Source: Planctomycetota bacterium | GTDB taxonomy: Bacteria; Planctomycetota; SZUA-567; H5-PLA8 | Direction: 5' to 3' | DNA length: 64,000 nt | NCBI GenBank assembly: GCA_026184295.1 | Contig: JAHCJK010000001.1 | Location: 24,862-88,861, forward strand | Shown: positions 19,023-62,410 of the stretch, in pieces | Position numbering within the stretch: the first letter of the stretch is position 1 | Layout of the letters: each line of letters opens with the position of its first letter | Translations under genes and position numbers: made by a program | The notes under the pieces: model-generated | The model's database searches: none | What the model was told of the DNA's origin: nothing | The model's input: the letters and a program-made list of their open reading frames with translations, nothing else

Positions 19023-19062
19023 CAGGATTCAGGATTTAGATTTAGGATTTAGGATTCAGGGA
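19023..19062. repeat. Tandem heptamer array (caggatt / taggatt units) immediately after the PhyH stop codon
   Basis: acaggattcaggatttagatttaggatttaggattcaggg. Member of the dispersed heptamer-repeat family (see findings). Confidence 0.7.
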
Positions 19063-19075
19063 AAAAGACGGCGGC

Positions 19076-20425
19076 TCAGGCGCCTTGCAGCTTCGCGCGC
19101 GCCTGGGCGATCTCGGCGGCGATGGCGGCCTCGAGTTCCTGGAGTTCCTTGGTCAGGCGCGCGTAGTCGGTCTTCGAAAGCTGGCTCAGTTCGCGCGCGG
19201 GCGGCAGCGCCGCGCGGGCGAAGACCGCGCCCTGCATGGCCCGCTTGAGCTGCACGAGCACGAGCCCGTACGTGTCGGACTCGTCGCCTTCCTCGGCGTT
19301 GCTGCCGAGCGCCTGCGAGAGCCCGCCGCTGATCTCGAGGATCCCGTGGATCGCCTGGCCGAGGTAGCTTTCGGGGCCGGCGTTCTTGCGGTCGGGCATG
19401 CGCAGCACGCGCATGGTCAGCTTCTCGCTCTGCTGCATCAGCGGGTGGTTGCGGCGGCGGCGGCGCGCGGCGGTCAGGTCCGATTCGTCTTCGGCGCCTT
19501 CCTCTTCGTCATCGCCCGTTTCTTCCTCCGCCGGCTGCTTCCAGGATTCCTCCGGCGGGCCGGCGTCTTCGAAGGCCGTCTCGACCGGGTCTTCTTCTTC
19601 CTCGCCCGGCAAACCGGTAATGCCCTCGTCGCGCAGCGTGGCGTCGAAGGCTTCGCTGGGGTCCTGCCCGAGCAGCGTGCGTTCTTCCATCCCGCGCATC
19701 ATGCGCGACTGGCGCCGCACCTGTTCCTGGTAGGACGCGTCCCATTCGGCCTCGGTGCCGAAACACTGCGGGTCGAAGTCCTCGTCGTCCTCGCCGGCAA
19801 ACTGCACGGGCGGATGCTCCGCGGGCCGCAGCACCGCCTGGCGCACCTGCTCGATCGCCTGCGCCACGCGCTGCGCCATCGCCTGGGCCTCGCGCGGCTC
19901 GGGCGTCTCGCCGCGAGCCGAGAGAATCACGCCGAGCGGCGCGCCGGTCGCGTAGCCGGCCGAGTCTTCGATCTCGAGTTCCGGGATCAGCTTCTCGCGC
20001 AGCGCGGCGAGCATCTCGTGGAGCACCGCGTGGGCTTCGGGCGGGGCGTGGCCGGTGCGCACCTGGATCCAGGGCGTGGCCGTCAGCGGCCCGCGCTCGG
20101 CCTCGGCGAGGAATTCGTACGGCACCAGCAGGCCCTCGGGCGAGAGCATGAGCGAGATGGTCTCGGCGCCGGGCCAGAGGTTCAGCAGCGCGCCGCGGAT
20201 CATGCGCGGTTCGGGCCGGGGCTTCTCGGCCGCGCCGGCCTTCGCCGCGCGTTCGGACTTGGCGCGCTTGATGCGTTTCGCCCGCGTCGTCTGCGGCGTC
20301 GCGACGCTGCGCCAGATGCGCGCGTAGCCGCTCACGGCCAGCGCCACCTCGATCAGCCGGTCTTCGAAAGTCTCGATTTGCGAAGGCTTGGCCAGCCGCC
20401 CCCGGAAACGGATCACGGTTTCCAT
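19076..20425 (-). CDS. Hypothetical acidic protein (449 aa)
   Basis: Long ORF with normal composition. The opposite-strand ORF 19085..20458 is an Arg/Gly-rich shadow frame. Confidence 0.5.
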   Translation of the reverse strand: METVIRFRGRLAKPSQIETFEDRLIEVALAVSGYARIWRSVATPQTTRAKRIKRAKSERAAKAGAAEKPRPEPRMIRGALLNLWPGAETISLMLSPEGLLVPYEFLAEAERGPLTATPWIQVRTGHAPPEAHAVLHEMLAALREKLIPELEIEDSAGYATGAPLGVILSARGETPEPREAQAMAQRVAQAIEQVRQAVLRPAEHPPVQFAGEDDEDFDPQCFGTEAEWDASYQEQVRRQSRMMRGMEERTLLGQDPSEAFDATLRDEGITGLPGEEEEDPVETAFEDAGPPEESWKQPAEEETGDDEEEGAEDESDLTAARRRRRNHPLMQQSEKLTMRVLRMPDRKNAGPESYLGQAIHGILEISGGLSQALGSNAEEGDESDTYGLVLVQLKRAMQGAVFARAALPPARELSQLSKTDYARLTKELQELEAAIAAEIAQARAKLQGA

Positions 20426-20514
20426 GCCATCCGTCTATCACGCATCGCGCAAAGTTAAAATGAAACTCCGCGGTCGCGCGCGCCCCGGGGCCGATGGGGG
20501 CCTTTTGGAACCGC

Positions 20515-21828
20515 TCAGGCCGTCGGCGCGGGCGGCGCGTCGGGCGCCGAACCGTTCGCGCCTTCCGGCGGGGCCGGTGGCGCGGGCGTGGACGGCGGTG
20601 CGGCCGGCGGCGGTTGCGGCGGCGCTTGCGCGGCGTCGGCGGGCGGCGCGCCCGTGCCTTGGTGCGCGCGGGCCTGGCGCGTGCGGATATGGCGCGCCAT
20701 CGCTTCGCCCTTGCGCTCGTCGCCGCGCGTCATCCGCACGAGCAGGAAAAGGCCCAGGCCCATCACCACGGCGGCCACGAGCACCACGCCGCCGGTGCCG
20801 GACTCGGGCGTCTCCAGGTGTTCCATCTTCAGCGCGACGTAGATGGGCATCGTGTCCCACTGCTGGTCGGCGCGCACGTAGGACCAGCGCTGCAAGAACA
20901 GCCCCGTCCAGCGCACGCGGTCGGGCGCGTCCACGTCGTCCTTCGAACGGAACCCGCCGATGTCCTGCGGGACCAGCAGCGCGTAAAAATGGAGCCGGTC
21001 GTCGCGGCAGATGACCATCCAGGTGTCGCGCACGCCCGACTTGTTTTCCGCGTCCATCCCCCAGTTGCGGATCTGGTATTTCTTGATGAGGCTGCCTTCG
21101 AACTTGTACGCCTGCCCGCGGTAGTGGTCGGGGTTGGTCATCACGTTGGAGAACGTCGCCAGCGCGCGGTTGGGCCCCAGCGCCTTCGAATTGGCTTCCT
21201 TGCGCGCCTGGTAGTAGGCCTCCAGGGTCTCGGGGCGGTCGGCGTGGGTGCGCAGGTAGCGGAAGAGCATCCAGATCGCCTCGGCGCCGTGGTCCACCTC
21301 GCTCGCCGCCACCAGCCCTTCGGCGTTGGAAATGTTGTCGTCGAAGATCACTTCAAACGCGTCGGTGAAGGACTGCGCGCCCGGGTCCAGGTCTTCCAGC
21401 TTCTCGAAATTCGGGAGCATCTCCTGGAACTTGCGCACCTTGGCTTCGTCCACCGTGTACTTGCGGCGCTGCGGTTCTTCGGAAGCGGGCGCTTCGGCTT
21501 CGGCGCCGGGCGTTTCTTCCGCGCCGGGCTTCCGTTCGCCGGAAGCTTCGGCGGGCTCGGCCGCGATCGGCTTGCCCTGCGCGTCCACGACGGTGCCTTC
21601 GGCGCGCTTGTTGATCGTGGGGTGGGGGTGCGCGGGCAGCGTCGGGTTGACGTGCGTGCGGCTGGAATCGATGATCTTCTGCAGTTCGCCGCCTTGGCTC
21701 GCGGCGCGCCCGCGGCTGCGGAGCATGCTCACGCCCGCCGCCAGCAGCCCGGCCATCAGCAGCAGCATGATGAAGCGGCCGGTCAGGAAGTCCATGAGCG
21801 ACTTGGGGCGGTCCTGCACCCATTTCAT
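20515..21828 (-). CDS. Hypothetical membrane protein (two predicted transmembrane helices, Pro/Ala-rich C-terminal tail)
   Basis: Start chosen at MKWVQDRPK. TM helices FIMLLLMAGLLAAGV and GVVLVAAVVMGLGLFLLV. Co-directional with 19076..20425. Confidence 0.45.
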   Translation of the reverse strand: MKWVQDRPKSLMDFLTGRFIMLLLMAGLLAAGVSMLRSRGRAASQGGELQKIIDSSRTHVNPTLPAHPHPTINKRAEGTVVDAQGKPIAAEPAEASGERKPGAEETPGAEAEAPASEEPQRRKYTVDEAKVRKFQEMLPNFEKLEDLDPGAQSFTDAFEVIFDDNISNAEGLVAASEVDHGAEAIWMLFRYLRTHADRPETLEAYYQARKEANSKALGPNRALATFSNVMTNPDHYRGQAYKFEGSLIKKYQIRNWGMDAENKSGVRDTWMVICRDDRLHFYALLVPQDIGGFRSKDDVDAPDRVRWTGLFLQRWSYVRADQQWDTMPIYVALKMEHLETPESGTGGVVLVAAVVMGLGLFLLVRMTRGDERKGEAMARHIRTRQARAHQGTGAPPADAAQAPPQPPPAAPPSTPAPPAPPEGANGSAPDAPPAPTA

Positions 21829-42200: not shown

Positions 42201-43736
42201 ATGAACCTCTCGAAACGTGCCGCCGTAGTCCTTCTCTTGCTCCTTCAGGCGTTCCTCCTGAGAGCCCGCGCGGCCGAAGAAGCGCCGCCGCCGGCGCTGG
42301 CCTTCGAAGTCCAGCCGGCCGAAAAGACGGGGCTGACGCATGCGCTCGACAGCAATCAGGTGAAGTACCCGTGGCTCTCGCCGCTGGTGGACATCGACGG
42401 CGACGGCCACCTGGACGCGCTCTGGTACGGCCACCACGGCGGCGGCGCGGGCGTCTGGATGGGGAAGGGCGGCGGAACCTTCGCCTTCGACGAAAGCGGC
42501 TACGCCGCTCGCTGGGTCTTCGCAGGGCGCGACCCGATCTGGTGGGACCTGAACGGCGACGGCAAGGCCGACGGGATCGGCACCGAACACGTCGCCGGCA
42601 AGACCTTTCTCAACACCGGCGACGGCCATTGGAAGCCGCTGGAAGGCTGGGCCAACTTCGGCGGCGGCATGATCTGGCTCGATGCCGACGGCGACGGGCG
42701 CTACAACGAAGTCTTCACCAACAAGAACAGCATCGTGTCGATGGAACCCATGATGAGCGCCTGGGCCGCTCAATTCCCCGAAAAGGTCGCGCTCAAGCTG
42801 TATGCGAAAATCGAGGAACTCGTGCCGTGGCCCGAAAAGGTCGAACGCAATCCGCACCCGCTCGCGGCGAACTTCCACAACATCTACTGCGTGGACCTGG
42901 ACGGCGACCACGTCAACGAACTGATCGTGACCTTCTCGGGCCCGCAGTTCACCTGGGTGCTCAAGCGCGACGCCTCCGCGCCCAAGGACGCGGGCGCCAA
43001 GGCCTGGAAAGACGCCACCGCGTCCGCCGGCCTGCCGACCGGCCCCGGGCACTGGCTCTTCCCGGAAGACCTGGACTGCGACGGCGACCTGGACCTGCTC
43101 GACTTGAACAACGGAGCCTGGTACGCGAACGACGGCAAAGGCGTCTTTACCGCCGCGCCCGAGAAGGCCTGGGATGCCTCGAAGCGCAAGACCGGCGCGC
43201 CCTGGAGCGGCGACGGGGAACTGGAACTCCAGGACCTGGACAACGACGGTCGCCGCGACCTGATCTTCGGCAACGACCACGGCAACGAATGCGGCGTCTT
43301 TCTCGGCATGGGCAAGGGCCGCTTTACCGAAGTCCCCGGCATCGGCGGCAGCCGCCGCAACCGGCGCTTTGGCGACGTGGACGGCGACGGCGACCTGGAC
43401 ATGATCTCCACTGCCGCGACGCTTGTGCTGACGAAGAATCAGACCGCGAACAAGGGCCTGGCGCTGCGCTTCCAGCCCGCCGCGCCCGCCGAATCGTTCC
43501 TGGGCGCGAAGGTGTGGGTCTACGAACCCGGCAAGATGGGCGATGCGTCCGCGCTGATCCAGTACCGGCAAGGCTTCTTCGAACGCAACTCGAACCGTTC
43601 GAACGTGCTGATTCCTGAGTGGCACATCGGCATCGGTTCGCGCGATTCGTGCGACATCCGCGTCCGCTACCCCAGCGGCAAGGTCGTCGAAATCCCCGGC
43701 GCGAAAGCCGGCACGAAGGCGGTGGCGAAGGAGTGA
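42201..43736 (+). CDS. Secreted FG-GAP repeat / ASPIC-UnbV family protein (paralog A)
   Basis: Signal peptide. Repeated D.DGDG..D calcium-binding FG-GAP-like motifs (DIDGDGHLD, DADGDGRYN, DLDCDGDLD, DVDGDGDLD). C-terminal ASPIC/UnbV-like tail. About 50% identity to 54135..55748. Confidence 0.7.
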   Translation: MNLSKRAAVVLLLLLQAFLLRARAAEEAPPPALAFEVQPAEKTGLTHALDSNQVKYPWLSPLVDIDGDGHLDALWYGHHGGGAGVWMGKGGGTFAFDESGYAARWVFAGRDPIWWDLNGDGKADGIGTEHVAGKTFLNTGDGHWKPLEGWANFGGGMIWLDADGDGRYNEVFTNKNSIVSMEPMMSAWAAQFPEKVALKLYAKIEELVPWPEKVERNPHPLAANFHNIYCVDLDGDHVNELIVTFSGPQFTWVLKRDASAPKDAGAKAWKDATASAGLPTGPGHWLFPEDLDCDGDLDLLDLNNGAWYANDGKGVFTAAPEKAWDASKRKTGAPWSGDGELELQDLDNDGRRDLIFGNDHGNECGVFLGMGKGRFTEVPGIGGSRRNRRFGDVDGDGDLDMISTAATLVLTKNQTANKGLALRFQPAAPAESFLGAKVWVYEPGKMGDASALIQYRQGFFERNSNRSNVLIPEWHIGIGSRDSCDIRVRYPSGKVVEIPGAKAGTKAVAKE

Positions 43737-43762
43737 TCCTTCCGCCTGCGCGGAAGGATCAA

Positions 43763-43965
43763 GGGGTCAGGGGACAGGGCTCAGAGGTCAGGGAACTGCA
43801 AATACAGACGTGCACGCGCCGCCTTAAACGATGGTTCCCTTGGTCGAGCTTTTGTTTGGTTGTTCCCTGACCTCTGATCCCTGTCCCCTGATCCCTGGTA
43901 GTAAAAAAGCCACCGGTTCCCCAGTGGCCTTTCCCTGAATCCTGAATCCTGATTCCTGACCCCTG
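43763..43965. repeat. Heptamer-repeat hairpin element (inverted arrays 43763-43796 and 43862-43895, plus a third array near 43935-43965)
   Basis: ggggtcaggggacagggctcagaggtcagggaac versus gttccctgacctctgatccctgtcccctgatccc, then ccctgaatcctgaatcctgattcctgacccctg. A short hairpin cgtcgtcggcttcgccgacgacg directly abuts the convergent PhyH stop. Confidence 0.75.
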
Positions 43966-43988
43966 CGTCGTCGGCTTCGCCGACGACG

Positions 43989-50229: not shown

Positions 50230-50304
50230 CGCAGGCAGACCGTAGTTCACCCAACGCCCTTCGCCGTCCCTTAACGTTCAAAGAGGGGCGGCGAAGCCGT
50301 TCCA

Positions 50305-50400
50305 CCCCTGACCCCTGAATCCTGATTCCTGACCCCTGCCGTTCGAAGCCGCTCCATCCCTTACCCCTAAATCCTGATCCCTGACCCCTGCCGTTCGAAG
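50305..50400. repeat. Heptamer-repeat arrays (two direct copies of ..cctga..cccctgccgttcgaag) overlapping the last codons of the GH4 gene
   Basis: cccctgacccctgaatcctgattcctgacccctgccgttcgaag ... cccctaaatcctgatccctgacccctgccgttcgaag. The GH4 C-terminal residues GSGIRI are encoded by the array. Confidence 0.75.
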
Positions 50401-51839: not shown

Positions 51840-52712
51840 ATGCGACGCTGGAATCCGCCGTGGGAGATCAAGCAGGCCTTCAAGGCCGGCCTCGCCGTCG
51901 TTCAGCATAAAAAGAAGGGCCGCCAGGGCACCGTCGGCCCGTGCACCTCCGCCGCGGACGAATGCTACGCCGTCGTCCAGGGCGACCTGGAAGGCTTCGA
52001 CGGCCGGCGCTGGGGCCCGATGCCGGCGCGTTCCCTGGCCTGGTTCCCACGCGACCGGCGCTACGGCATCCGCGCGCGCCTCGGCTACGCCGGCCCCGTG
52101 CGCATCGTCAGCATCCTCTTTAAGGCGCCGCCGGGCTTCGGAAGCGGCCTGCCGCGCGGCCCCGTGCGCCTGCCCGCGCCGTGGTGGCGGCGCTTCCTGG
52201 AACTCGAAGCAAGCTGCGACTACGACGAACGCGGCCAGCGCACGCTCGCCGTGGCCGACCTCGCCGCCTTCATCGAACGGCTCGCGCGCGCCCTCGCGCC
52301 CGGCCGCGCGCGTACGCTTCGCCGAAGCACCAAGCCGTCCGCCGCGAAACTCGCCGCCGCCGAACCCAGCCGCCCCGACACCGAAGCCGAATGGCTCGAA
52401 GCGTGGACGCGCGCCGAGGACGTGATCCGCGACCGCGCCGGCCAGGGCCTGACGGTGGACGAACTCGCCGAAGCCGTGCAAGTCTCCCCGACGCAGCTCC
52501 GCCGCGTCTTCCACGCCTCGCGCGGCCAATCGCCCAAGGCCGCCCTGACCGCCTGGCGCATCGACGAAGCCAAACGCCTGCTCGCGCAGGGCAGACTCAA
52601 CGTGACCCAGGTGGGGGAAGCCGTCGGCTTCGGCAGCCTGCCGAGGTTCTCCGCCGCCTTCAAAGCCGCGACCGGCCGTTCGCCCAGCGCGTTTGCTAGA
52701 AGCAGGGGGTAG
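51840..52712 (+). CDS. AraC-family transcriptional regulator (divergent from GH4)
   Basis: C-terminal AraC HTH (LTVDELAEAVQVSPTQLRRVFHASRGQSPKAALTAWRIDEAKRLL, VTQVGEAVGFGSLPRFSAAFKAATGRSP). Confidence 0.7.
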   Translation: MRRWNPPWEIKQAFKAGLAVVQHKKKGRQGTVGPCTSAADECYAVVQGDLEGFDGRRWGPMPARSLAWFPRDRRYGIRARLGYAGPVRIVSILFKAPPGFGSGLPRGPVRLPAPWWRRFLELEASCDYDERGQRTLAVADLAAFIERLARALAPGRARTLRRSTKPSAAKLAAAEPSRPDTEAEWLEAWTRAEDVIRDRAGQGLTVDELAEAVQVSPTQLRRVFHASRGQSPKAALTAWRIDEAKRLLAQGRLNVTQVGEAVGFGSLPRFSAAFKAATGRSPSAFARSRG

Positions 52713-52721
52713 GGCGGAAGG

Positions 52722-52772
52722 CAGGGGTCAGAATTTAGGGGTCAGGGGTCAGGATTCAGGGGTCAGGGAAGG
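52722..52772. repeat. Heptamer-repeat array immediately after the AraC stop
   Basis: caggggtcagaatttaggggtcaggggtcaggattcaggggtcaggga, followed by ggagcggctgcgccgcc. The related ggagcggcttcgccgc motif accompanies other family copies. Confidence 0.7.
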
Positions 52773-52789
52773 AGCGGCTGCGCCGCCCA

Positions 52790-52968
52790 TTTCTGCGTTG
52801 CCTGGTGGTCTGGAATGCGCAACTAGTTTATATAATTAAGTTTATGTGGCAGTGCCCTCCTCGCTCGGGTCTCTTCCGAATTGGAATTCAGAATTCCGTG
52901 AAAATGCTTGGCCGAGAACATCGGGGGCGGGTTACTAGATATATAGATAGTGTAGATAAGGATTATAT
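52790..52968. promoter_or_regulatory. AT-rich island / probable promoter region upstream of the GntR-type regulator
   Basis: agtttatataattaagtttatg ... tagatatatagatagtgtagataaggattatatatg. A local drop to much lower GC in a 68%-GC background. Confidence 0.4.
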
Positions 52969-54117
52969 ATGGCCCGCGACGTCTTCTCGGTGACCCTGGA
53001 CAGAAAGAGCGGGATACCGGCCTATCGGCAGGTCCAGGAGGAGTACCGCAACCGCATCCTCGGCGGCGTTTTTCCGGAAGGCATGGTCTTCCCGTCCGAA
53101 GGGGCCATGGCGCGGGAGCTGCGCCTGAACAAATTGACGCTGCGCCGGGCGATTCTCGAACTTGAGAAGGAAGGACTGGTCCGGAAGGCTCAGGGGCGGC
53201 CCACGCTGGTCAGCCAGCGTTCGGAGTGGGTGCAGACGCAGCGCAGGGCGGTCGTTTCCATCATGATCCCCGACGATGTCTTCGAGCCGTACAAGGAAGA
53301 ACTGCTGGGGCACCTCTGCCGGCACTGCGTGCGGCTGGGGATGGATGTGCGGGTATGCCGCGAGGCCGAGGCCGGGGCGTCCCTGGAAAGCATCCCGCAG
53401 AACGGCGTGGACGGCATCTTGACGTATCCTTCGCCGCGCCCCGAGTACGCGGCCAGGCTGGAAAAGGTGACGGTGCCGCTGCTGGTGTTCGAGATGCGCG
53501 AGGACATCCCCGGCCACGCGGATCGCGTGGTGGTGGACAACCTGAACGGGTACCGGCAGGCGCTGGAACACCTGAAGGCGCTGGGGCACCGCGAGATCTT
53601 CTACATTGGCGCGCTCGTCGGGCGGAAGAACCTGGACGGGACCATCCGGTACGCCATGCTGCGCAACACGCATTTCAACACGCTGTTTTTTCGCAGGGCG
53701 ATGGAAGACGCGGGCTTGGATGCCTCGCCGGAACGCTGTCTGGAGATGCCCTTTCAGCAGGAAGGCGCCGACGCGCTCATCCGGAAACTCATGGAGGCCC
53801 GGGAGCGCCCGACGGCCCTGATCGTTTTCAACGACGAGCTGGCGCAATTCGCGATACGCGCGCTGAACCGCCGGGGGCTCACCGTGCCGGACGATATCAG
53901 CGTGGTGGGCGGCGGGCGTTTTCCCGACGCCGTGGCGGAAACGAGGCTGGCCACGGTGGCGGTGGACCGCGACGAGATGGCCAGAACCGCGGCGCAGCGG
54001 ATGCATGAACGAATGAAAAACGGCGGCCTGGCCGGGCTGGTGATCGAGATCGCCACGCGCTTCGTAAACGGCGCGACCGTCGGGCCGGCGCCGAAGAGAC
54101 AGCCGGTTGAACCCTGA
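52969..54117 (+). CDS. GntR-HTH / LacI-type sugar-binding-domain regulator
   Basis: N-terminal GntR wHTH (PSEGAMARELRLNKLTLRRAILELEKEGLVRKAQGRPTLV) plus PBP-like domain. Confidence 0.75.
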   Translation: MARDVFSVTLDRKSGIPAYRQVQEEYRNRILGGVFPEGMVFPSEGAMARELRLNKLTLRRAILELEKEGLVRKAQGRPTLVSQRSEWVQTQRRAVVSIMIPDDVFEPYKEELLGHLCRHCVRLGMDVRVCREAEAGASLESIPQNGVDGILTYPSPRPEYAARLEKVTVPLLVFEMREDIPGHADRVVVDNLNGYRQALEHLKALGHREIFYIGALVGRKNLDGTIRYAMLRNTHFNTLFFRRAMEDAGLDASPERCLEMPFQQEGADALIRKLMEARERPTALIVFNDELAQFAIRALNRRGLTVPDDISVVGGGRFPDAVAETRLATVAVDRDEMARTAAQRMHERMKNGGLAGLVIEIATRFVNGATVGPAPKRQPVEP

Positions 54118-54134
54118 TCCGGGTGAGTACTTGA

Positions 54135-55748
54135 ATGGAGAACAGCATGAGACCTGAGCGCATGAGCAAGACCGCCGGCCGCCTGCCGGGCGCCGCCTTC
54201 GCCGCCTTCGCGGCGATCGTAGCCATCCTTGGCCTCGGCCGGCATCTGGCTGCCGCCGAGGCGCCTCCGCCCGGCGGCCCTTCGGCCCCGCCGGCGCTGG
54301 CGTTCGTGGAGGTGCCGGAGGCGCAGTCCGGCCTGACGCATGCGATGAACAGCGATCCCAAGCTCGGCGAGGTGAAATGGCCGTGGATGTCGCCGCTGGT
54401 GGACGTAAACAACGACGGACACCTTGATATCCAATGGTACGGCCATCACGGCGGCGGCGCGGGCGTCTGGCTCGGCAAGGGCAATGGTGTCTTCGAATTC
54501 GAAACGACCGGGTACTTTTCGCGATGGGTGTTCGGGGGCCGCGATCCGCTCTGGTGGGATGCGAACGGCGACGGGTTCATGGATGGCATCGGCACCGAGC
54601 ACGAACCCACGGGCAAGCTTTACTTGAACGACGGGACGGGCCACTGGAAGAAGACCGGCGTCGAACTCCTGGGCGTGCTCACCGACCTCGACGGCGACGG
54701 CCGCCACGACGACCTGCTCAAGCAGAATAAGGCGTACTCGGTGGAACCTCGGCCGCGCGATTGGGCCGGAAAAATCCCCGACAAGGTGGCGCTCAAGGAA
54801 CTCTGGGACGCCGAGAAGCTCGTGGGAGGCGTGGAAGGCCAGGACATGAAGGCGCACGCGGTCGGGTTCAGGACCTGCCATGCGGCCGACTTCGACCAGG
54901 ATGGCCGCAACGAACTCGTGCTCGGTTTCAGCGGGTGCAAACTCAAAGCGGCCTTTTCCTCGGCGGAGTACCAGCAATCCTGGCTGTTCGTCCGGGAGGC
55001 CGCCGGCTGGAAGGAAGTCGCCGCGGCCCGCGGCCTTCCCGCCGGCCCCGGGCACCGGTTCCTGCCCGAAGACGTGGATGCCGACGGCGACCTCGACCTC
55101 ATCGATCTTTGCACCGGCCAATGGCACGCGAACGACGGCAAAGGCACGTTCACGGTTTCCGATAAGCGCATCTTCGATCCGGAAAAGCGCAAAGGCAAAT
55201 TCCCCTTTGACGGCGATGGCGAGATGGAACTCCTGGACCTCGACAACAACGGGTATCGCGACCTCGTGCTTTCAAGCGACCACACCACTTCCAGCGGCGT
55301 GTTTCTCAACGCCGGGGGCGGGAAATTCGTCGAAGTCCCGGGCATTCGCATCAACCGCCGCGACCGAAAATTCGGCGACGTGGACGGAGATGGCGACCTG
55401 GACATGGTGGCGCAGAGCGCGGACGGCAAAAAGATGGTCCTCTTCCGGAACGAGACTTCCAACGCTGGGCTGTTCTTGAAGGTGACGCCCAAGGCGCCGG
55501 CCGAGGCGTCGTTGGGCTGCAAGATCTGGGTGTATCGCGCCGGCAAACTGAACGAGGCCTCCGCGCTGCTTCACTACCGCCAGATCTTCCTCCTGAATGC
55601 CCGCACGCGGGGCAACGTGATGGAGAACCGGATTCACCTGGGTCTGGGCCAGGAGCAGGCCGTCGATATTCGCGTCTGCTTCCCGTCCGGAGAAGTGCGG
55701 GACCTCCCGGGCGCCAAAGCCAAGACGGTGGTCGAAGCGAAGGAGTAA
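54135..55748 (+). CDS. Secreted FG-GAP repeat / ASPIC-UnbV family protein (paralog B)
   Basis: Collinear with 42201..43736 (LAFVEVPEAQSGLTHAMNSDPKLGEVKWPWMSPLVDVNNDGHLD, GHHGGGAGVWLGKGNG, DVDGDGDLDM). True start may be an internal Met (MSKTAG). Confidence 0.7.
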   Translation: MENSMRPERMSKTAGRLPGAAFAAFAAIVAILGLGRHLAAAEAPPPGGPSAPPALAFVEVPEAQSGLTHAMNSDPKLGEVKWPWMSPLVDVNNDGHLDIQWYGHHGGGAGVWLGKGNGVFEFETTGYFSRWVFGGRDPLWWDANGDGFMDGIGTEHEPTGKLYLNDGTGHWKKTGVELLGVLTDLDGDGRHDDLLKQNKAYSVEPRPRDWAGKIPDKVALKELWDAEKLVGGVEGQDMKAHAVGFRTCHAADFDQDGRNELVLGFSGCKLKAAFSSAEYQQSWLFVREAAGWKEVAAARGLPAGPGHRFLPEDVDADGDLDLIDLCTGQWHANDGKGTFTVSDKRIFDPEKRKGKFPFDGDGEMELLDLDNNGYRDLVLSSDHTTSSGVFLNAGGGKFVEVPGIRINRRDRKFGDVDGDGDLDMVAQSADGKKMVLFRNETSNAGLFLKVTPKAPAEASLGCKIWVYRAGKLNEASALLHYRQIFLLNARTRGNVMENRIHLGLGQEQAVDIRVCFPSGEVRDLPGAKAKTVVEAKE

Positions 55749-55759
55749 CAGGCAGGATA

Positions 55760-55888
55760 CAGCCATCGGGATACAGGATTCAGGATTCAGGATACAGGGG
55801 AGGAGCGGCTTCGCCGCTTTTCCCTTAAAGAAAAGGAGCAGCGCCACGCGCTGCTCCTCCCCTGATCCCTGAATCCTGACCCCTGCTG
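55760..55888. repeat. Heptamer-repeat hairpin element after FG-GAP paralog B
   Basis: gatacaggattcaggattcaggatacaggggaggagcggcttcgccgc ... gctcctcccctgatccctgaatcctgacccctg (inverted arrays). Confidence 0.75.
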
Positions 55889-56626
55889 TTACCGCCCCGA
55901 TTCCCCGCGGTCCACGCCGGTCTTGGTGCCGCGGACCATGAAGCGGGCCTTGGCGAAGTCGTACGCCAGGTCGTCCTTGCTCGCGTCGCGGTAGGTGCTG
56001 ATCAGCGCCCAGCGGTCCCGGCCGCTCTTGTTGGGGAAGCTGGCGTGCAGGGTCAGGTCGTGGAAGAAGATCGCGCCGCCTGCGCGCACGGGCGCGACGA
56101 TGGCCTTGCTCTCGTCCACGTCTTCGGGGCGCAGGCGGTTGTTGAAGCCGATGCCGTCGCTGTCCTGGCCGCCGTGGCTGGCGTGCTTCATGTGCGAACC
56201 GGGAATCAGCTTCAGGCAGCCGTTCTCGGGGCTCGCATCGTCGAGCGCGATCCAGACGGAAAACTTCGAGGTGCCCTTCCAGTAGGGCCAGTCCTGGTGC
56301 CAGGGCGAACCGAAATCGACGCCCGCGGACTTGTAGACGACCTTGTCGCTCCAGAATTCCAGGTTCGGGCCGACGCACTGTTCCAGCACGTCGAGCACGC
56401 GCGGATCGGCGTTCAGCTTCTTGAAGAAGTCGCTGTTGAGCGTGATGCCGACGAAGACGCCGTTGTCCTTGGGCACGTTGCCGTCCTTGTCCTTCGTGCG
56501 CTTCGAGTCGAGGATGCGGCGAATCTCCTGCTTGGCCGCCGCCATCTCCTCGCGCGTAAAAAGGTCTTCCACCAGCACGTAGCCATCGCGCGCAAACATC
56601 GTCTTGTAATCCGCCGCCACCAGCAT
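55889..56626 (-). CDS. Phytanoyl-CoA dioxygenase (PhyH) family oxygenase
   Basis: PWHQDWPYW ... IPGSH ... HDLTLHAS motifs. 245 aa. Confidence 0.75.
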   Translation of the reverse strand: MLVAADYKTMFARDGYVLVEDLFTREEMAAAKQEIRRILDSKRTKDKDGNVPKDNGVFVGITLNSDFFKKLNADPRVLDVLEQCVGPNLEFWSDKVVYKSAGVDFGSPWHQDWPYWKGTSKFSVWIALDDASPENGCLKLIPGSHMKHASHGGQDSDGIGFNNRLRPEDVDESKAIVAPVRAGGAIFFHDLTLHASFPNKSGRDRWALISTYRDASKDDLAYDFAKARFMVRGTKTGVDRGESGR

Positions 56627-57963: not shown

Positions 57964-59007
57964 ATGCCGTCATCCAATTCCGGCCAGATCACCACCATCG
58001 AACGCCACATCCTCGACCAGCAGCACCATTACCCGGATGCCAGCGGCGCGCTGACCAACCTGCTTTACGACCTGGCCCTGTGCGGCAAGATCATCGCCAG
58101 CAAGGTCATCCAGGCCGGCCTGATGGACGTGCTCGGCAAGACCGGGCTCCAGAACGTCCAGGGCGAGGAAGTGCAGAAACTCGACGAGTTCGCCGACGAG
58201 ACCATCTTCAAGCTCAACGACCACACCGGCCGCCTGGCCGTGATGGGCAGCGAAGAACACGACGAGATCATCCCGATCCCGAAGAAGTACAAGACCGGCA
58301 AGTACGTCCTGCTCTACGACCCGCTCGACGGTTCCTCGAACATCGACGTGAACGTGAGCGTCGGGTCGATCTTCGCGATCTTCAAACGCAAGTCGCCCGA
58401 AGGCACCCCCGGCACGCTGGAAGACGTGCTCCAGCCGGGCCGCGACCTCGTCGCCGCCGGCTACATCATCTACGGGTCGAGCACCATGCTGGTGTATTCG
58501 ACGGGGCAGGGCGTGCACGGCTTCACGCTCAACCGCATGCTCGGCGAGTTCCTCCTCTCGCACCCGAACATCCGCACGCCCGAAAAGCCCAAGTACTACA
58601 GCGTCAACCAGGCGTACGAACCCTACTGGAGCCCCGGCGTGCTGCGGTACGTGCGCTACCTCCAGACGGGCGAAGGCGAGCCCGAAAAGCTGGGGCTCTC
58701 GCTGCGCTACATCGGTTCGCTGGTCGCGGATTTCCACCGCAACCTGCTCAACGGGGGGCTCTTCTGCTACCCGGCCGACCGCAAGGATCCCAAGAAGCCC
58801 GGCGGCAAGCTGCGCCTGCTGTACGAGGCCGCGCCGCTCGCGTTTCTGGCCGAACAGGCCGGCGGCGCCGCCACCGACGGGCGCCAGCGCATCCTCGACA
58901 TCGCGCCGGCCTCGCTGCATCAGCGCGTGCCGCTGTACATCGGCGACAAGAAACTCTGCGAGAAGGCCGAGCAGTACATCCAGAAATACGACGGGGCGGG
59001 CGCGTGA
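57964..59007 (+). CDS. fbp: Fructose-1,6-bisphosphatase class I
   Basis: Strong family similarity throughout ([59 protein letters not shown]). Confidence 0.9.
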
Positions 59008-60608
59008 GCGACGCGCCGGCGCTCTCGGCGGCCGAAGCGTCAAGCCGGGCCTCCCAGGGGCGCACGCGCACCGTGCTGTACCTGTACGTCGGCGCGCCGT
59101 CCGAATGGACCGACGAGGCCGCCGCCACGCAGCCCGACGGGCCCGACCGCGAACTCCAGCGCCTCTTCGATCCCATCGTCCGGGCGCTCGGCGGCTCGGT
59201 CATGAAGGCCGCGGGCGGGGCGTTTCTGGTCGAATTCTTCAGCGCCACCGACGGCGTCGTCTGCGCGCTCGCGATGCTCGACGCGCTGCGCCAGCGCAAC
59301 GACCACCTCCCGGAAATCCAGACCCGCCGCGCGCGCGCCGCGCTCGACACCGGCCGCGTCGAGGAACTCGACGGCGTGCCCATCGGCGCGGCTCTGGAGA
59401 TCGCCCAGGGCCTGGCCGAATGCACCGCCGAAGGCGATGTCTGCCTGACCGAACAGACGCAGCGCCTGGTGGACGCGTCCTTCCTGCCGTCGAAGGCCGT
59501 CGGCGACCGCGAAATCCCCGGCGCGGGCTGCTCGCGAAGAATCTTCCGCGCGGTCAACGACGCGCATTCGCCGGCGATCCGCAGGATCGTGGCGGCCGTG
59601 CGGGTGAAGGACGGCGCGGCCGAAATCCGCGGGCTCGTCGCGCAGGACCGCCGCGCCAAGCGCTGGGTGCTCGCCGCGGCCGCGGTCTCGCTGCTGCTGG
59701 CCGCGGCGCTGGTCTTCGGGACGTGGTTCGTGCGCCAGGGCGGCTTCGGGCGCGATCCCGCCGCCTTCGCGCGCGAACAGCTCGCCCGGGGCGACGCCTT
59801 CGGCGCCTACCAGACCGCCGCCGCCGCGCTGAGCCGCCGGCCGGGCGACCCGAAGCTCGCCGAACTGGCCGTGGACGCCGCCGGCAAGCACGTGGACGAC
59901 CTCGCGCGCCGCCGCGCAAGCGAAGCGGCGCTCAAGTGGCTCGACGCCGAGATGATCCTGCACGAGGAACTGCAGCCGCTGGCCGGGCGCCGCGCCGTCC
60001 TGGACGTCGAAGTCTCCGTAGAGAAACTTCTGGCCAGCGGCAAGTCCGCGCCGGACGTTATGGACGGCGTCCGCGAACTGCTCGCCCGGCACCCGCAGCC
60101 CGACGTGCCCGTCGTCGCCGCCGCGCGCATCCGCCGCCGCAACCTCGGCGCCAGCGAACTCTGGCTGTACGAAGAAGCCTTCCGCCGCGGGTTCAAGGCG
60201 ACCAACCTGGACATCTTCGACGCCTGCGTGGAAACGCTCGCCCGGCACGCCCCGCGCGCCCCCGACGCGCAGCGCGCGCACGAACTGATCCGCCGGAACT
60301 TCCCCAAGGAACGCCTGGCCTGGGCCGAGAAGACGCTCGACAAGGGCGACGGCTTCGCGTGGATCAACGCCTACGCGATCGTGGACGAACTGAACCTCCC
60401 GAAGGAAAAGGACCCGCTGTACGAGTCGCTCGCGAAGGTGCTGAACGGCGAAGAGATCGACCAGTTCGGCAAGATTCTGCTGCGCCTGCGCAAGGACGAA
60501 CGCCGCCGCGCCGGCTTCATCCTCGCCAAGTCCCTCGAAGCGAACGCGATCGGCGGCTCCGCCCGCGACGAAGTGGAGACGCTGGCGCAGAAGCTGCGGA
60601 CGGAGTGA
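59004..60608 (+). CDS. Membrane protein with degenerate cyclase-homology-like N-terminal domain and helical C-terminal domain
   Basis: GTG start overlapping the fbp stop (GTGA). N-terminal region resembles a class III nucleotidyl cyclase domain ([33 protein letters not shown]) but lacks the canonical metal-binding Asp pair. TM helix [23 protein letters not shown]. Confidence 0.4.
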
Positions 60609-60679
60609 GCCGCGCTTCGCATGTTGTTGCGGTCTGACCGACGTCCTCGCTAAGTGCCCGAGAACATCCCAACGAAAGC

Positions 60680-60900
60680 ATCCCTCGCCCCCGCGAAGTG
60701 CGGGGGAGAGGGCGCAGGGTGAGGGGGCGCAGGGTGAGGGGGCGCAGGTGTGCCTGCCCAACCCGCGCAAGCAAGCGTTCCGGCCAGAAGGTCTTCCGCG
60801 CGATTTGACGGTTGCATTTCCGGGACACCGGCGCCCCCTCACCCTCAATCTCTCTCCCCCACAACAGCGTGGGGGCGAGGGAAGGGTGCAAGTGTGGGAT
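60680..60900. repeat. G-rich direct and inverted repeats in intergenic region (gagggggcgcagggt x3 and complementary gcgccccctcaccctc)
   Basis: ccctcgcccccgcgaagtgcgggggagagggcgcagggtgagggggcgcagggtgagggggcgcaggtg ... ggcgccccctcaccctcaatctctctcccccacaacagcgtgggggcgaggg. Confidence 0.6.
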
Positions 60901-61155
60901 TTTGACTCTTAGCAATTCGAAAGCGATGGAGCACGAGATATCGACAGGCGAATGGAATGCGATGGCTTATCCACTCGGCACTTCCTTGCCAACCTATAAA
61001 GAGCAATGCCCCATCAGGTTCCCCGTGGATCACGGCTCCGGACCAATCCAAAATCCCCAATCCAAAATCGAAAATAGCCGTAACCCATTCGCCTTCCTCC
61101 TTCTCTCCACGGTGACGCCGGTCCGGCGAAACCAAGGAATGAAAGGAGCTTACCT

Positions 61156-61590
61156 ATGTCCGTCGATGCAAAGGCTGCCGCGGTGGCGGCGTTCAAGGAA
61201 GGCTGGGGGGATGCGGCGCCGCCCGTGGCGGCGACCGAAGACGAAAAGACTTGGGGGATGCTCGCGAACCTCCTGGGCCTCTTCTTCGTCGTCGGCCCGG
61301 CCATCGCCTGGTTCCTCAAGGGCGATTCGAAGTACGTGAAGTTCCACGCGCTGCAGATGATCCTGGTCAACCTCGCGAGCTTCGCGGTGGGCATCGTGCT
61401 CGGCGTGGTCTTTACGGTGCTCGCGGCGGTCCCCGCCGTGGGCTGGACGGTGATCTCCATCGTCAGCCCGCTCTTTTCGCTCTGCATGCTGGGCCTGCTC
61501 GCCTTTCTGGCGCTGAAGGCCAAGAACGGCGTGCTCTTCAAGGTTCCGGCGCTCGGCGCCTTCGCGTTCAAGACCGTGTACCCGGCCTAA
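61156..61590 (+). CDS. Small integral membrane protein (DUF4870-like, HALQ motif)
   Basis: Multiple TM helices. FHALQ motif typical of DUF4870-type proteins. Confidence 0.55.
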   Translation: MSVDAKAAAVAAFKEGWGDAAPPVAATEDEKTWGMLANLLGLFFVVGPAIAWFLKGDSKYVKFHALQMILVNLASFAVGIVLGVVFTVLAAVPAVGWTVISIVSPLFSLCMLGLLAFLALKAKNGVLFKVPALGAFAFKTVYPA

Positions 61591-61634
61591 ACCGCGCGAA
61601 CCCTCCGGTTCGCCACAACCAAGGAGAATGATCG

Positions 61635-62195
61635 ATGAAAGCGTTCGCCAGTTTCATGTTCGCCCTCTTGGCCGTCGTGCAGTTGGGGTGTTCCGCCGCC
61701 GATACGAAGACGACCGCCGCGGAGAATCCCTACAAGAAGGCCAAGGTCGGGCAGTGGTCGGAATACAAGACCGTCAGCGAGATCATGGGCACCAAGACCG
61801 AGGTGAAGGCGAAGACCACCATCACCGCCAAGGACGAGGCCTCCGTCACGCTCTCCACCGTGACCGAAGTCAACGGGACCGCGCTGCCCGCGCAGACGGT
61901 GGTGATCAAGTTCGAGGACCTCGAGAAGGCGCAGCAGACGGTCAAGTCCGAGGAACTTGAGAAGGGCAGCGAGACCCTGAGCGTCGGCGGGAAGTCGTAC
62001 GCATGCACCTGGGTCAAGACCAAGGTCACGGCCGAGGCCAACGGCGCGAAGTCCGTCACCATCGCCAAGGTCTGGGTCTGCGAAGACGTGCCCCTGAGCG
62101 GGCTGGTGAAATCCGAATCGACGACCACCACCGAGATGAACGGCAACGAGATGAAGACCGTCGCGACGATGGAACTGCTGGGCGCGGGAAGCTGA
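61635..62195 (+). CDS. Lipoprotein, hypothetical
   Basis: Signal peptide with lipobox-like LGCSA. Thr/Lys-rich mature part. Confidence 0.55.
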   Translation: MKAFASFMFALLAVVQLGCSAADTKTTAAENPYKKAKVGQWSEYKTVSEIMGTKTEVKAKTTITAKDEASVTLSTVTEVNGTALPAQTVVIKFEDLEKAQQTVKSEELEKGSETLSVGGKSYACTWVKTKVTAEANGAKSVTIAKVWVCEDVPLSGLVKSESTTTTEMNGNEMKTVATMELLGAGS

Positions 62196-62410
62196 ACGCA
62201 GTGAACAGTGGTCAGTGATTAGTGGACAGTGATTAGTGAACAGTGATCAGTGAACGGCAACAGCAACGGCAGGGATCGTGGGCGCACGCCACGATCCCTG
62301 CGTTGCTTTTCACTGATCACTGATCACTCTTCACTGATCACTCTCCACTGTCCACTGATCACTGTCCACTGATCCCCGTCCACTCGTCACCGATCACTGC
62401 CCACTGCTCG
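62196..62410. repeat. Heptamer-repeat hairpin element, cagtgat variant
   Basis: cagtgaacagtggtcagtgattagtggacagtgattagtgaacagtgatcagtgaac ... central hairpin ggcagggatcgtgggcgcacgccacgatccctgc ... cactgatcactgatcactcttcactgatcactctccactgtccactgatcactgtccactgatcc. Confidence 0.8.

Follow-up and report, generated by a model that had tools for sequence, protein, structure and literature searches.

Heptamer arrays behind stop codons in a Planctomycetota genome: G-rich simple-sequence repeats with a putative role at transcript 3' ends

Why should arrays of tandem heptamers stand directly behind the stop codons of genes? The question is raised by a 64,000-nt stretch of Planctomycetota DNA (hereafter the window), for which the original prediction reported such arrays at six loci. 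With TRF and the sequences themselves, period-7 arrays were recovered at all six (Table 1). In a self-match scan, 27 segments reached 22 or more matches out of 28 at period 7, the sole enriched period, versus 0-1 at periods 4-12. The expression (YAG[GTA][GA]NN), iterated three times or more, matched 12 heptamer arrays at six loci of the window, a count that includes the 19016-63 array twice, as two pieces; it had no match among 50 Markov shuffles of the window. Its output comprised 19016-63+, 43768-95+, 43863-97-, 43931-65-, 50304-38-, 50363-90-, 52722-70+, 55774-801+, 55858-85-, 62199-254+ and 62344-71-, the last being a portion of the 62311-406 array. The overall unit is CAGG(G/A)(G/A/T)N with a CAGTGAT variant, and CAGGGGT, CAGGATT and CAGTGAT are the units found after stop codons. 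The arrays are not CRISPR, as had been stated, and an assembly artefact is unlikely, because a similar array overlaps the GH4 stop of the independent MAG L126 and hundreds of unrelated assemblies carry heptamer arrays of this kind.

Table 1. Arrays and hairpins of the window, with their units and gene context
Feature	Position	Strand	Units or sequence	Context and fold
Array g	19016..19063	+	CAGGGGA CAGGATT CAGGATT TAGATT TAGGATT TAGGATT CAGGGAA	Begins 3 nt past TAA of PhyH gene 18161-19012; occupies most of 63-nt gap before convergent gene 19076-20425(-)
GC hairpin, 12 bp	43734..43761	+		5' of array h; begins within TGA stop of FG-GAP gene (end 43736)
Array h	43762..43796	+	AGGGGT CAGGGGA CAGGGCT CAGAGGT CAGGGAA	5' arm of inverted pair
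Array i	43862..43897	-		Inverted partner of h, beyond minus-strand terminator
Intrinsic-terminator-like hairpin	43903..43933	-	GGCCACUGGGGAACCGGUGGC then UUUUUU	Directly 3' of array a; 142-nt fold, z = -8.2
Array a	43931..43965	-	CAGGGGT CAGGAAT CAGGATT CAGGATT CAGGGAA	23 nt past TAG of PhyH gene 43989-44885(-)
GC hairpin, 11 bp	43966..43988	-	CGTCGTCGGC GAA GCCGACGACG	Between PhyH stop and array a
Hairpin and tail	50279..50303	-	GGAACGGCTTCGCCGC + CCCTCTTTG	3' of array b
Array b	50304..50338	-	CAGGGGT CAGGAAT CAGGATT CAGGGGT CAGGGGT	
Array c and degenerate hairpin copy	50339..50397	-	GGAGCGGCTTCGAACGG (hairpin copy)	Codes terminal QGSGIRI and TAG stop (50367-69) of GH4 gene 50367-51722(-)
Array d	52703..52770	+	Degenerate first units, then CAGGGGT CAGAATT TAGGGGT CAGGGGT CAGGATT CAGGGGT CAGGGAA	Degenerate first units overlap final codons and TAG stop (52710-12) of AraC-family gene 51840-52712
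Hairpin and tail	52771..52795	+	GGAGCGGCTGCGCCGC + CCATTTCTG	
Array e	55749..55801	+	CAGG CAGGATA CAGCCAT CGGGATA CAGGATT CAGGATT CAGGATA CAGGGGA	Begins at TAA of FG-GAP gene 54135-55748
Terminator-like hairpin	55802..55826	+	GGAGCGGCTTCGCCGC then TTTTCCCTT	z = -6.0
Terminator-like hairpin	55827..55857	-	GGAGCAGCGC GUG GCGCUGCUCC then UUUUCUUU	For minus-strand PhyH gene; z = -4.9
Array f	55858..55885	-	CAGGGGT CAGGATT CAGGGAT CAGGGGA	3 nt past TAA of PhyH gene 55889-56626(-)
Array 6a	62199..62254	+	CAGTGAT variant, 8 units	3 nt past TGA of gene 61635/61785-62195
Inner hairpin	62263..62310	+	13 pairs, 9 G-C, then GTTGCTTTT	
Array 6b	62311..62406	-	(TCACTGA)n on + strand, ~13 units	Inverted partner of 6a

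The predicted link of a dispersed family to the 3' ends of genes was borne out. For 11 of the 12 arrays, a gene terminates 5' of the array and has the G-rich strand as its coding strand, and at eight gene ends the first array lies 0-31 nt past the stop, two of them overlapping it. Arrays occupy 4/12 convergent, 2/32 tandem and 0/12 divergent intergenic regions (Fisher p = 0.016), the two loci outside convergent junctions lying between co-oriented genes. The claim that every copy starts 0-25 nt from a stop does not hold throughout: 43863-97 is 91 nt from a stop, past a terminator; 50304-38 arose as copy two within a 52-nt duplication; and 62311-406, instead of following a stop, precedes an ECF-sigma gene (62447-63181+), 40 nt upstream of its start. 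At the GH4 gene, the proposal that GSGIRI at the C-terminus is array-encoded proved correct.

The same rule recurs beyond the window, in two rough samples for which cross-phylum gene calls are approximate. Among 120 loci from many phyla, an array lies within 25 nt past a same-strand stop in 32 cases versus 5 antisense (p = 7e-6), or 29 versus 5 at one array per locus, and 120 IMG/VR contigs gave 27 versus 5 (p = 1e-4). Such a bias could in principle reflect tolerance, neutral or selfish slippage-prone repeats surviving without function wherever they are harmless. A pyrimidine-rich copy in mRNA would pair with purine-rich transcripts or Shine-Dalgarno sequences, or load Rho, and therefore only the purine-rich orientation would survive in transcribed 3' UTRs. 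Rapid turnover is consistent with this reading: in the close relatives, at 64-79% aa identity, no arrays were found in 7-20 kb from each, a span that takes in the PhyH and GH4 ends of those that have them, so that the arrays are dispensable. L126 has two and L122 four with other units. Among the relatives compared, PhyH and AraC ends bear arrays in the window genome alone. Taxonomically, the arrays are scattered very sporadically over a wide range, as are long SSRs (PMC4679880), and the heptamer repeats described by Rehm et al. (2015; PMC4692102) follow no gene-function pattern. However, tolerance alone predicts no excess next to stops, and in the two independent samples half of the same-strand arrays begin no more than 25 nt from a stop, versus ~10% in the opposite orientation. 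Arrays at the GH4 stop also recur in three lineages with different units, namely the window genome, L126 (TAGGATT CAGGACT ...) and L122 (CAGAATC x5), the window protein being the only one of the three with an array-encoded tail. Since the arrays of the window also keep their unit order and hairpin within a module (see below), we regard purely neutral repeats as rather unlikely.

The function might instead lie on the opposite strand, where the unit reads NNCCTGA, C-rich and G-poor, with a TGA each 7 nt that therefore closes all three frames. A wrong-side transcript would lose its ribosomes and expose a Rho-loading site, so that convergent genes would be insulated. This composition and these stop codons come directly from the sequence, four of the six loci are convergent junctions, and 6b, where TCACTGA units precede a start codon, recalls the TAACTGA repeats that Beggiatoaceae carry ahead of their starts. 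An antisense transcript is nevertheless not expected at the two loci between co-oriented genes, and low-GC, mostly cyanobacterial loci obey the positional rule too (15 vs 1), although cyanobacteria are not known to possess Rho. An antisense role appears improbable.

As multivalent RNA-binding platforms in the 3' UTR, the arrays might bind either a CsrA/RsmA-type GGA-binding protein or, as Shine-Dalgarno-like tracts retaining post-termination ribosomes, the 16S rRNA 3' end. The CsrB repeat CAGGA(U/C/A)G has CAGGAU at its core, GGA occurs in most units, and the tight coupling to stop codons suggests a translation-linked cause. The 40 nt past array-bearing stops pair with the anti-SD at -11.0 kcal/mol versus -5.9 for other 3' UTRs of the window, but this is a composition effect, because the arrays pair no more strongly than their own shuffles. 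Moreover, CAGGGGT, CAGGGTT and CAGTGAT lack GGA, and cyanobacteria, which are not known to have CsrA, follow the stop rule too. MacGregor (2015) offers candidate binders only, and we find such platforms very unlikely.

A G-quadruplex, an idea already put forward for the repeats of Xanthomonas and Nostoc, could form from four or more G-tracts in the non-template DNA or nascent RNA past the stop, and would modulate transcription or translation. The units CAGGGGT and CAGGGAT contain G3-4 tracts, arrays d and i hold at least four G3 tracts, and related units form quadruplexes in vitro, with a preference for four units (Rehm et al., PMC4692102). At least four G3 tracts are nevertheless present in just 2/10 window arrays of at least four units; e and g fall short of this number, and 6a and 6b lack such tracts altogether. 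Across phyla, the stop rule is equally strong in the sample for arrays without any G3 tract (9 vs 1) and for G4-capable ones (15 vs 3), which makes quadruplex elements quite improbable.

The original prediction saw no U-tract and nothing like an ordinary intrinsic terminator, a view that did not survive: immediately behind at least four arrays (a, e, f and 6a) stands a GC hairpin that ends in a U-rich tail, and weaker versions follow b and d. Folded regions at these terminator-context arrays reach z -4.9 to -11.9, and the inner hairpin behind 6a is the top terminator-like site in a scan of 43-63 kb. A simple scan of that region counted no more terminator sites than in shuffles (16 vs 17.4). 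At g, b/c and d, canonical U-tracts are weak or absent, and whole-region folds do not surpass those of shuffles (z about 0 to 0.9). Inverted array pairs do yield long hairpins, as had been proposed, with stems of 35-83 nt: the unit variants of i mirror those of h in order (35 nt, 94% complementary, 65-nt loop), and other pairs reach 36 nt at 83% (40-nt loop) and 58-83 nt at 78-81%. Together, 6a and 6b form a stem of ~55 bp (-134.9 kcal/mol, z = -11.9). In other genomes, only ~30% of stop-adjacent arrays precede a significantly stable structure, and the terminator link may thus be restricted to the lineage of the window genome.

Within the window, the predicted conserved motif beside the arrays was found as GGAGCGGCTTCGCCGC, with three copies at no more than one mismatch; an array stands immediately 5' of each, and copies at this threshold adjoin arrays only. 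The motif is itself a hairpin with a U-rich tail, whose stem the final unit of array e lengthens by pairing with the tail. Unit order and hairpin are common to six copies (59 nt at 85% from one locus to another), a and b have 25 identical nt, and b is the second copy of an array-plus-hairpin tandem duplication (TRF: period 52, 2.1 copies, 91%). With nhmmer, matches were limited to the window sites and the GH4 stop of L126. This conserved ~60-nt module of array and GGAGCGGCTTCGCCGC hairpin is new here.

Such dispersal had been compared with REP or MITE elements, and the module or the inverted arrays could owe their spread to a transposase whose gene lies at another site of the genome. The conserved unit order and hairpin and the 52-nt duplication fit this comparison; d and f, moreover, form 36-nt inverted repeats (92%) around a 3-kb segment (GntR and FG-GAP genes) missing between AraC and PhyH in relatives. 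No defining REP or MITE feature was found, however. Target-site duplications were not seen, the inner sequences of different inverted pairs are unrelated, loci differ in unit types, and the ~20 ORFs scanned beside arrays gave no transposase match at the Pfam threshold. Rehm et al. likewise report no mobile-element association for their repeats (PMC4692102), and mobility by transposition seems most improbable.

We put at about even the chances of another explanation, in which slippage-born repeats are kept as the 5' part of 3'-end or terminator modules. Replication slippage would create the arrays and alter their length and, in the window genome, a ~60-nt module of about five fixed-order units, a small GC hairpin and a U-rich tail would have been copied. 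Lying on the coding strand at the stop or a few nt past it, the arrays are therefore predicted to be transcribed as a purine-rich stretch of 3' UTR. This stretch would fold little alone and lead into an intrinsic-terminator-like hairpin, whose stem could be extended by pairing between the last unit (CAGGGRA) and the U/C-rich tail. At convergent gene ends, or after inverted duplication, arrays would pair together in a read-through transcript as a 35-80 bp hairpin, a possible fail-safe that would keep transcription out of the neighbouring gene. Acting as a spacer with an extended terminator stem, the arrays would shape and insulate the 3' ends of transcription units, with no need for G-quadruplex formation. 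A spacer role leaves the heptamer-repeat form of the spacer unexplained.

The arrays had been considered unassignable to a described repeat class, yet G-rich heptamer repeats were already known from Xanthomonas (GGGAATC) and Nostoc (GGGGA(C/T)T) (Rehm et al., 2015; PMC4692102). Heptanucleotide simple-sequence repeats are among the 'long SSRs' of Mrazek (2007), as summarized in PMC4679880. The repeats of Rehm et al., for which Xanthomonas RNA-seq gave no clear termination role, have a modal four units and 70-75 convergent inverted pairs per genome, and lie 0-50 bp past stops on the coding strand, overlaps included (PMC4692102). Their mean distance is 28 nt to the 5' ORF versus 160 nt to the 3' ORF, and they are rare between divergent ORFs (PMC4692102). 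The window arrays share with them stop adjacency, coding-strand orientation and convergent inverted pairs, and differ in their CAGG-type unit. They are G-rich heptameric simple-sequence repeats of the Xanthomonas/Nostoc kind, to which they add this unit in a Planctomycetota MAG, a stop-adjacency rule that recurs in two rough cross-phylum samples, and the extension of that rule to arrays incapable of forming G-quadruplexes.

Period-7 arrays stand at all six of the loci where they had been announced: TRF and the sequences themselves agree on head-to-tail units of 7 nt, with 3.7-12.9 copies per array. In a self-match scan period 7 alone was enriched, with 22 or more matches out of 28 in 27 scan windows, compared with 0-1 such windows at periods 4-12, and three or more consecutive units of the form YAG[GTA][GA]NN were found in 12 arrays and in none of 50 shuffles of this DNA, whose G+C content is about 67%. 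The units are of the types CAGGGGT, CAGGATT, CAGGAAT, CAGGGAT and CAGTGAT. CRISPR, set aside in the original prediction, is rightly rejected, as it would call for repeats of about 23-50 nt with unique spacers, and the units here are contiguous heptamers.

Genes were mapped with Pfam and a codon-position G+C caller requiring GC3 > GC1 > GC2, which recovers the Pfam-supported genes near the arrays and is approximate for other genomes. One of these genes, PhyH 55889-56626, encodes a protein identical to MCW8128810.1 from a Planctomycetota MAG. On this map the G-rich strand is the coding strand of the gene ending 5' of the array in 11 of 12 arrays, and at eight gene ends the array starts -24 to +31 nt relative to the stop codon. 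The claim that every copy adjoins a stop holds for these ends and fails for array 6b, the inverted partner of 6a, which precedes the start of the sigma-factor gene by 40 nt. Both the GH4 and the AraC gene end on the TAG of a repeat unit, and a TAA-C(A/G)G(G)-CAGG junction closes three genes. As predicted, an array encodes the end of the GH4 protein, a QGSGIRI tail missing from its orthologues. Of the intergenic regions, 4 of 12 convergent and 2 of 32 tandem ones hold arrays, and none of the 12 divergent ones does (Fisher p = 0.016). Stop codon usage at array-bearing genes (3 TAA, 3 TAG and 2 TGA, against 8, 14 and 26 at other genes) is suggestive of a difference, with numbers too few to judge. 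Within the Pfam-supported PhyH gene 43989-44885(-), ARAGORN called a tRNA-Gly of 87 nt whose anticodon, ACC, is unusual (44120-44206, minus strand); it is probably a false positive.

Heptamer arrays and other repeats of the window with their flanking genes (positions in the window; elements in forward-strand order, minus-strand elements marked)
Left flank	Elements	Right flank
13450-14013 (+)	palindrome of tandem 9-10-nt units, 14018-14245	14257-16221 (-)
	Acido-Lenti-1 RNA, 17778-17824 (-) and 17924-17969 (+)	PhyH, 18161-19012
PhyH, 18161-19012 (+)	array g	19076-20425 (-)
minus-strand gene	tandem 8-mers, 39663-39690, and inverted copy, 39891-39918	minus-strand gene
FG-GAP, to 43736 (+)	hairpin, array h, array i (-), terminator (-), array a (-), hairpin (-)	PhyH, 43989-44885 (-)
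49774-50229 (+)	hairpin and array b (-), hairpin and array c (-)	GH4, 50367-51722 (-)
AraC, 51840-52712 (+)	array d, hairpin	GntR-type, 52969-54117 (+)
FG-GAP, 54135-55748 (+)	array e, hairpin with U-tail, hairpin with U-tail (-), array f (-)	PhyH, 55889-56626 (-)
59004-60608 (+)	15-mers and inverted copy, 60677-60885	
	heptamers CCAATCC AAAATCC ..., 61043-61075	DUF4870, 61156-61590 (+)
61785-62195 (+)	array 6a, hairpin with U-tail, array 6b (-)	ECF sigma, 62447-63181 (+)

Six of the arrays are part of a larger conserved module of about 60 nt. These copies (a to f) share some five units in the order CAGGGGT-CAGGRRT-CAGGATT-CAGGGGT-CAGGGRA, followed by a hairpin and a C/T-rich tail. Two loci have 59 nt in common at 85% identity, arrays a and b have 25 identical nt, and one module occurs as a tandem duplication (52 nt, 91%); a profile search with the module gave no additional copies within the window. 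Inverted arrays able to form long hairpins, another expectation that was borne out, occur as three pairs. In one of them arm i repeats, in mirror image, the unit variants of arm h (35 nt at 94%), and the two must therefore be true inverted copies, not independently evolved arrays. Slippage alone is insufficient to account for this family, which has spread by duplication or gene conversion.

The original prediction had seen a resemblance to a REP/MITE-like or 3'-UTR structural element family; no defining feature of REPs or MITEs was found. Inverted arms exist, but the sequence between them is unrelated across loci, no target-site duplications were seen, and no transposase reached the Pfam threshold in about 20 ORFs scanned beside the arrays, which makes mobility most improbable. 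The REP/REPIN identity is rejected as well, since direct heptamer repeats with little self-folding are not imperfect palindromes of 20-40 nt. Arrays d and f form 36-nt inverted repeats (92%) around a segment of about 3 kb with the GntR-type and FG-GAP genes (52713-55888); this segment separates AraC from PhyH in the window, and the two genes are direct convergent neighbours in L126, L128 and L129, three loci from relatives. Two FG-GAP paralogues (42283-43403 and 54283-55406, offset by 12.0 kb) are 72-82% identical at the DNA level, and each is convergent with a PhyH gene.

Folding of the sense RNA gave little stable structure for the arrays alone; it is the sequence 3' of them that is structured. 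Array e is followed by a GGGGAGGAGCGGC-UUC-GCCGCUUUUCCCU hairpin (z = -6.0), array f by GGAGCAGCGC-GUG-GCGCUGCUCC and then UUUUCUUU (z = -4.9), array a by GGCCACUGG-GGAA-CCGGUGGC and then UUUUUU (z = -8.2), and array 6a by a 13-bp hairpin and then GUUGCUUUU. Pairing of 6a with 6b adds an outer stem of about 55 bp around this last hairpin (-134.9 kcal/mol, z = -11.9). The statement that there is no U-tract fails because of these hairpins with U-rich tails adjoining arrays a, e, f and 6a; such hairpins are weaker after b and d and absent after g. U-tracts are weak or absent at g, b/c and d, where the folds of the region are at shuffle level, and the arrays themselves do not have the form of an intrinsic terminator (a GC-rich hairpin with an immediate U-tract). 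A consensus terminator scan showed overall no enrichment over shuffles. The conserved motif noticed beside the arrays proved to be itself a small hairpin, GGAGCGGCTTCGCCGC, present three times with at most one mismatch and each time directly 3' of an array; the motif (GGARCGGCTKCGCCGC / GGAGCGGCTTCGCCGC) had no match among 128 other loci.

The analysis establishes where the arrays lie and on which strand, that the module is conserved and which folds are predicted, and we give about an even chance to the inference that arrays and hairpins together help to end transcripts and protect the neighbouring gene. The arrays would be transcribed as the purine-rich beginning of the 3' UTR, their final unit could pair with the U/C-rich tail into a longer terminator stem, and inverted pairs would form a long double-stranded stem in read-through transcripts. 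The physical link to terminator-like hairpins provides a testable hypothesis on 3'-end formation and the insulation of convergent genes. A neutral repeat, filtered by tolerance to the places where it is found, is a possible though clearly less probable explanation. A CsrA sponge of the CsrB/RsmZ type is a small RNA transcribed from its own gene, with many GGA motifs in loops; here most but not all array units contain GGA, and the arrays lie in 3' UTRs and do not constitute a separate sRNA gene. Shine-Dalgarno mimicry is rejected, the pairing of arrays with the anti-SD being no better than that of shuffles; this also speaks against a ribosome platform of that type, and we hold a protein or ribosome platform to be very unlikely.

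A search for three CAGGRDH units followed by CAGG yielded at least 120 loci in 185,579 species genomes and at least 120 contigs in IMG/VR. The matches listed from genomes come from Cyanobacteria, Acidobacteriota, Gemmatimonadota, Planctomycetota, Verrucomicrobiota, Chloroflexota, Lentisphaeria, Bacteroidota and others. Among the matches listed, and with approximate gene calls, arrays within 25 nt after a stop are sense in 32 cases and antisense in 5 for genome loci (p = 7e-6; 29 and 5 when counted once per locus, p = 4e-5), and 27 against 5 on viral contigs (p = 1e-4). Junctions among these matches often consist of a stop and a partial unit, or the TAG is the first unit itself. Arrays without any G3 tract are sense rather than antisense near the stop in 9 cases against 1, and quadruplex-capable arrays in 15 against 3, again among the genome matches listed. 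The two independent samples constitute rough evidence that placement of the G-rich strand immediately 3' of the stop is a rule spanning phyla and independent of quadruplex potential.

The same observation weakens the sole mechanism proposed so far for such repeats, namely the formation of G-quadruplexes (G4), as the stop rule applies irrespective of G3 tracts. At least four G3 tracts, which give the G-rich heptamer class of Rehm et al. (2015) its quadruplex potential, occur in only two of ten window arrays and two arrays have none, and we judge G4 elements decidedly unlikely. The terminator link, for its part, is clear in the window and not general, since a significantly stable fold lies 3' of only about 30% of the stop-adjacent arrays listed elsewhere. 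It would be rather speculative, and in our opinion unlikely, to see in the CAGG-type arrays a G4-independent functional 3'-UTR element of Cyanobacteria, Acidobacteriota, Planctomycetota, Gemmatimonadota, Chloroflexota, Verrucomicrobiota and their viruses. Lying on the coding strand at the stop, such an element might act on a universal machine, be it the terminating or recycling ribosome or the RNA polymerase leaving the ORF, or else as a multivalent platform for RNA-binding proteins setting the fate of the mRNA 3' end.

Arrays of the CAGG type within ORFs were on the same strand in 76 cases and on the opposite strand in 7, spread along the ORFs; they may be real coding repeats or reflect ORFs over-extended through stop-free arrays. 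With these approximate calls, array 5' ends also appear clustered beside divergent start codons, which may be an artefact because TGA in all three opposite-strand frames limits ORF extension. An insulator acting in antisense through Rho or stops is a very unlikely alternative to a role in ending transcripts. Many of the loci collected (L001-L120, L133-L252) carry different heptamer arrays side by side, for instance TGCTAAA, CCAATTA, CTGACAA, ATTCATA and CCAAGAC.

Array presence varies between orthologous loci. In L126, from a Planctomycetes MAG with a PhyH 80% identical, TAGGATT CAGGACT TAGGATT CAGGGGA overlaps the GH4 stop, and in L122 (GH4 68% identical) five CAGAATC units begin 5 nt after it; L121 and L124 (GH4 70-71% identical) have no arrays. 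None were found in L128 to L131 (PhyH 64-79% identical) within the 7-20 kb examined per genome, and among the relatives compared only the window genome has arrays at the PhyH and AraC ends. Array turnover is fast, yet with recurrence at the GH4 end in differing units. The L122 lineage is rich in other heptamers (11350-11481, 13616-13803): its GH4 orthologue is followed by the five CAGAATC and then by 13 CAAGAGC units, and CAAGAGC arrays are found twice more within 2.5 kb, one of them inverted. The PhyH/AraC spacer of L126 (2267-2371) holds another dispersed motif, CGTAGAGCG, three times with inverted copies CGCTCTACG; a tandem array TAGAGCG TAGAGCG CAGAGCG is also present in an Oscillochloris locus (L033 4196-4216).

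Further repeats were observed in the window. The palindrome near 14 kb is made of GCTAAGAAC-like units, three CACGAAGGN and their complements, with outer arms of 69 nt at 86% and inner arms of 32 nt at 94%; it shares the architecture of the inverted heptamer arrays, the purine-rich arm coming first for both convergent genes. The 8-mers near 39.7 kb, three CACGGAGR whose inverted copy is 200 nt distant (28 nt at 93%), sit in a gap of 418 nt, and the 15-mer GGGTGAGGGGGCGCA, present three times past the stop of gene 59004-60608(+), has an inverted copy GGCGCCCCCTCACCC about 100 nt downstream. The purine- or G-rich arm is transcribed first from the upstream gene in all six cases (the 15-mer pair, the 14-kb palindrome, the 39.7-kb 8-mers and three heptamer pairs). 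The heptamers that precede the DUF4870 gene by 80 nt read GGATTNN in the minus-strand direction and closely resemble a CAACAATCCAAAATCGCAAATCCAAAACCC array between convergent genes in L126 (8561-8595). The two Acido-Lenti-1 matches score 39.4 and 51.3 bits against a gathering score of 37; they are inverted relative to each other (47 nt at 91%, separated by 81 nt) and lie in a divergent region of 452 nt.

The purpose of heptamer repeats is an old question, raised by the cyanobacterial STRR in 1990, the long SSRs in 2007 and the Xanthomonas and Nostoc G4 repeats in 2015. The present arrays extend the class to a further phylum with another unit, and are of moderate interest chiefly because a cross-phylum, G4-independent stop-codon rule sharpens that question. 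For annotation, a stop codon and the last few residues of a protein can come from such an array, as in GH4, and the arrays mark the ends of transcription units.

Rfam contained no family reaching the gathering score for the arrays, Acido-Lenti-1 being the only one in the window; an E-value scan of 43-63 kb returned only miRNA-hairpin matches far below threshold, and no bacterial paper emerged when the literature was searched for the exact units. REP/BIME elements of enterobacteria and pseudomonads resemble the arrays as short dispersed 3'-UTR elements between convergent genes with inverted-pair hairpins, which in REP/BIME can stabilise or end transcripts. A REP consists of one imperfect palindrome, 20-40 nt long and bearing a conserved 5' tetranucleotide, and is mobilised by RAYT transposases, whereas the arrays are tandem heptamers. 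The STRR, which Mazel et al. are said to have described in 1990, are reportedly tandem heptamers in non-coding DNA near gene ends, STRR1 being the complement of the Nostoc unit GGGGA(C/T)T. Their units differ from those of the window, and we know of no strand rule or terminator module for them.

Heptanucleotides are the commonest of the long SSRs (5-11 nt) in bacteria according to Mrazek et al. (2007) as cited in PMC4679880, with a sporadic phyletic distribution and polymerase slippage as proposed origin; in that account they are a statistical class with neither stop-codon rule nor terminator module. The TAACTGA direct repeats of Beggiatoaceae, Cyanobacteria and Bacteroidetes (MacGregor 2015, PMC4679880) are likewise intergenic, phyletically scattered heptamers, in 2-43 copies with a stop in each unit, and array 6b, reading TCACTGA 40 nt upstream of a start, is one base off. 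They lie on the coding strand a few nt upstream of starts, whereas the window arrays follow stops with the complementary, G-rich strand as sense.

The original prediction could assign the arrays to no described class; the closest counterpart is that of Rehm et al. (2015, PMC4692102), with GGGAATC in Xanthomonas and GGGGA(C/T)T in Nostoc. It comprises 7-nt units joined head to tail, perfect or heterogeneous, from two units (14 bp) upwards. Each Xanthomonas genome has 183-186 arrays, with a mode of four units, and 70-75 convergent inverted pairs; 89-93% are intergenic and only 7-8% between divergent ORFs. Mean distances are 28 nt to the 5' ORF and 160 nt to the 3' ORF, most downstream repeats are on the coding strand within 0-50 bp of the stop, overlaps included, array length varies between species, a link to mobile elements is absent, and G4 formed in vitro. 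The window arrays share the often heterogeneous tandem 7-nt units, typically about four, with one G-rich strand whose 5' end abuts the ORF 0-50 bp past the stop or overlapping it, the mostly intergenic location, rare between divergent genes, the frequent convergent inverted pairs, the variation in length and sequence among relatives and the lack of mobile-element association. Their unit is CAGG(G/A)DN (= AGGRDNC) or CAGTGAT and not GGGNATC, with the 6-mer GGAATC or GGGATC of some units as sole overlap with the GGGNATC/GGGANTN type, and their conserved small hairpin, U-rich tail and common unit order are unreported in PMC4692102. The window arrays belong to this kind of repeat, and differ from it in unit, host phylum (a Planctomycetota MAG), low G4 potential and the hairpin module.
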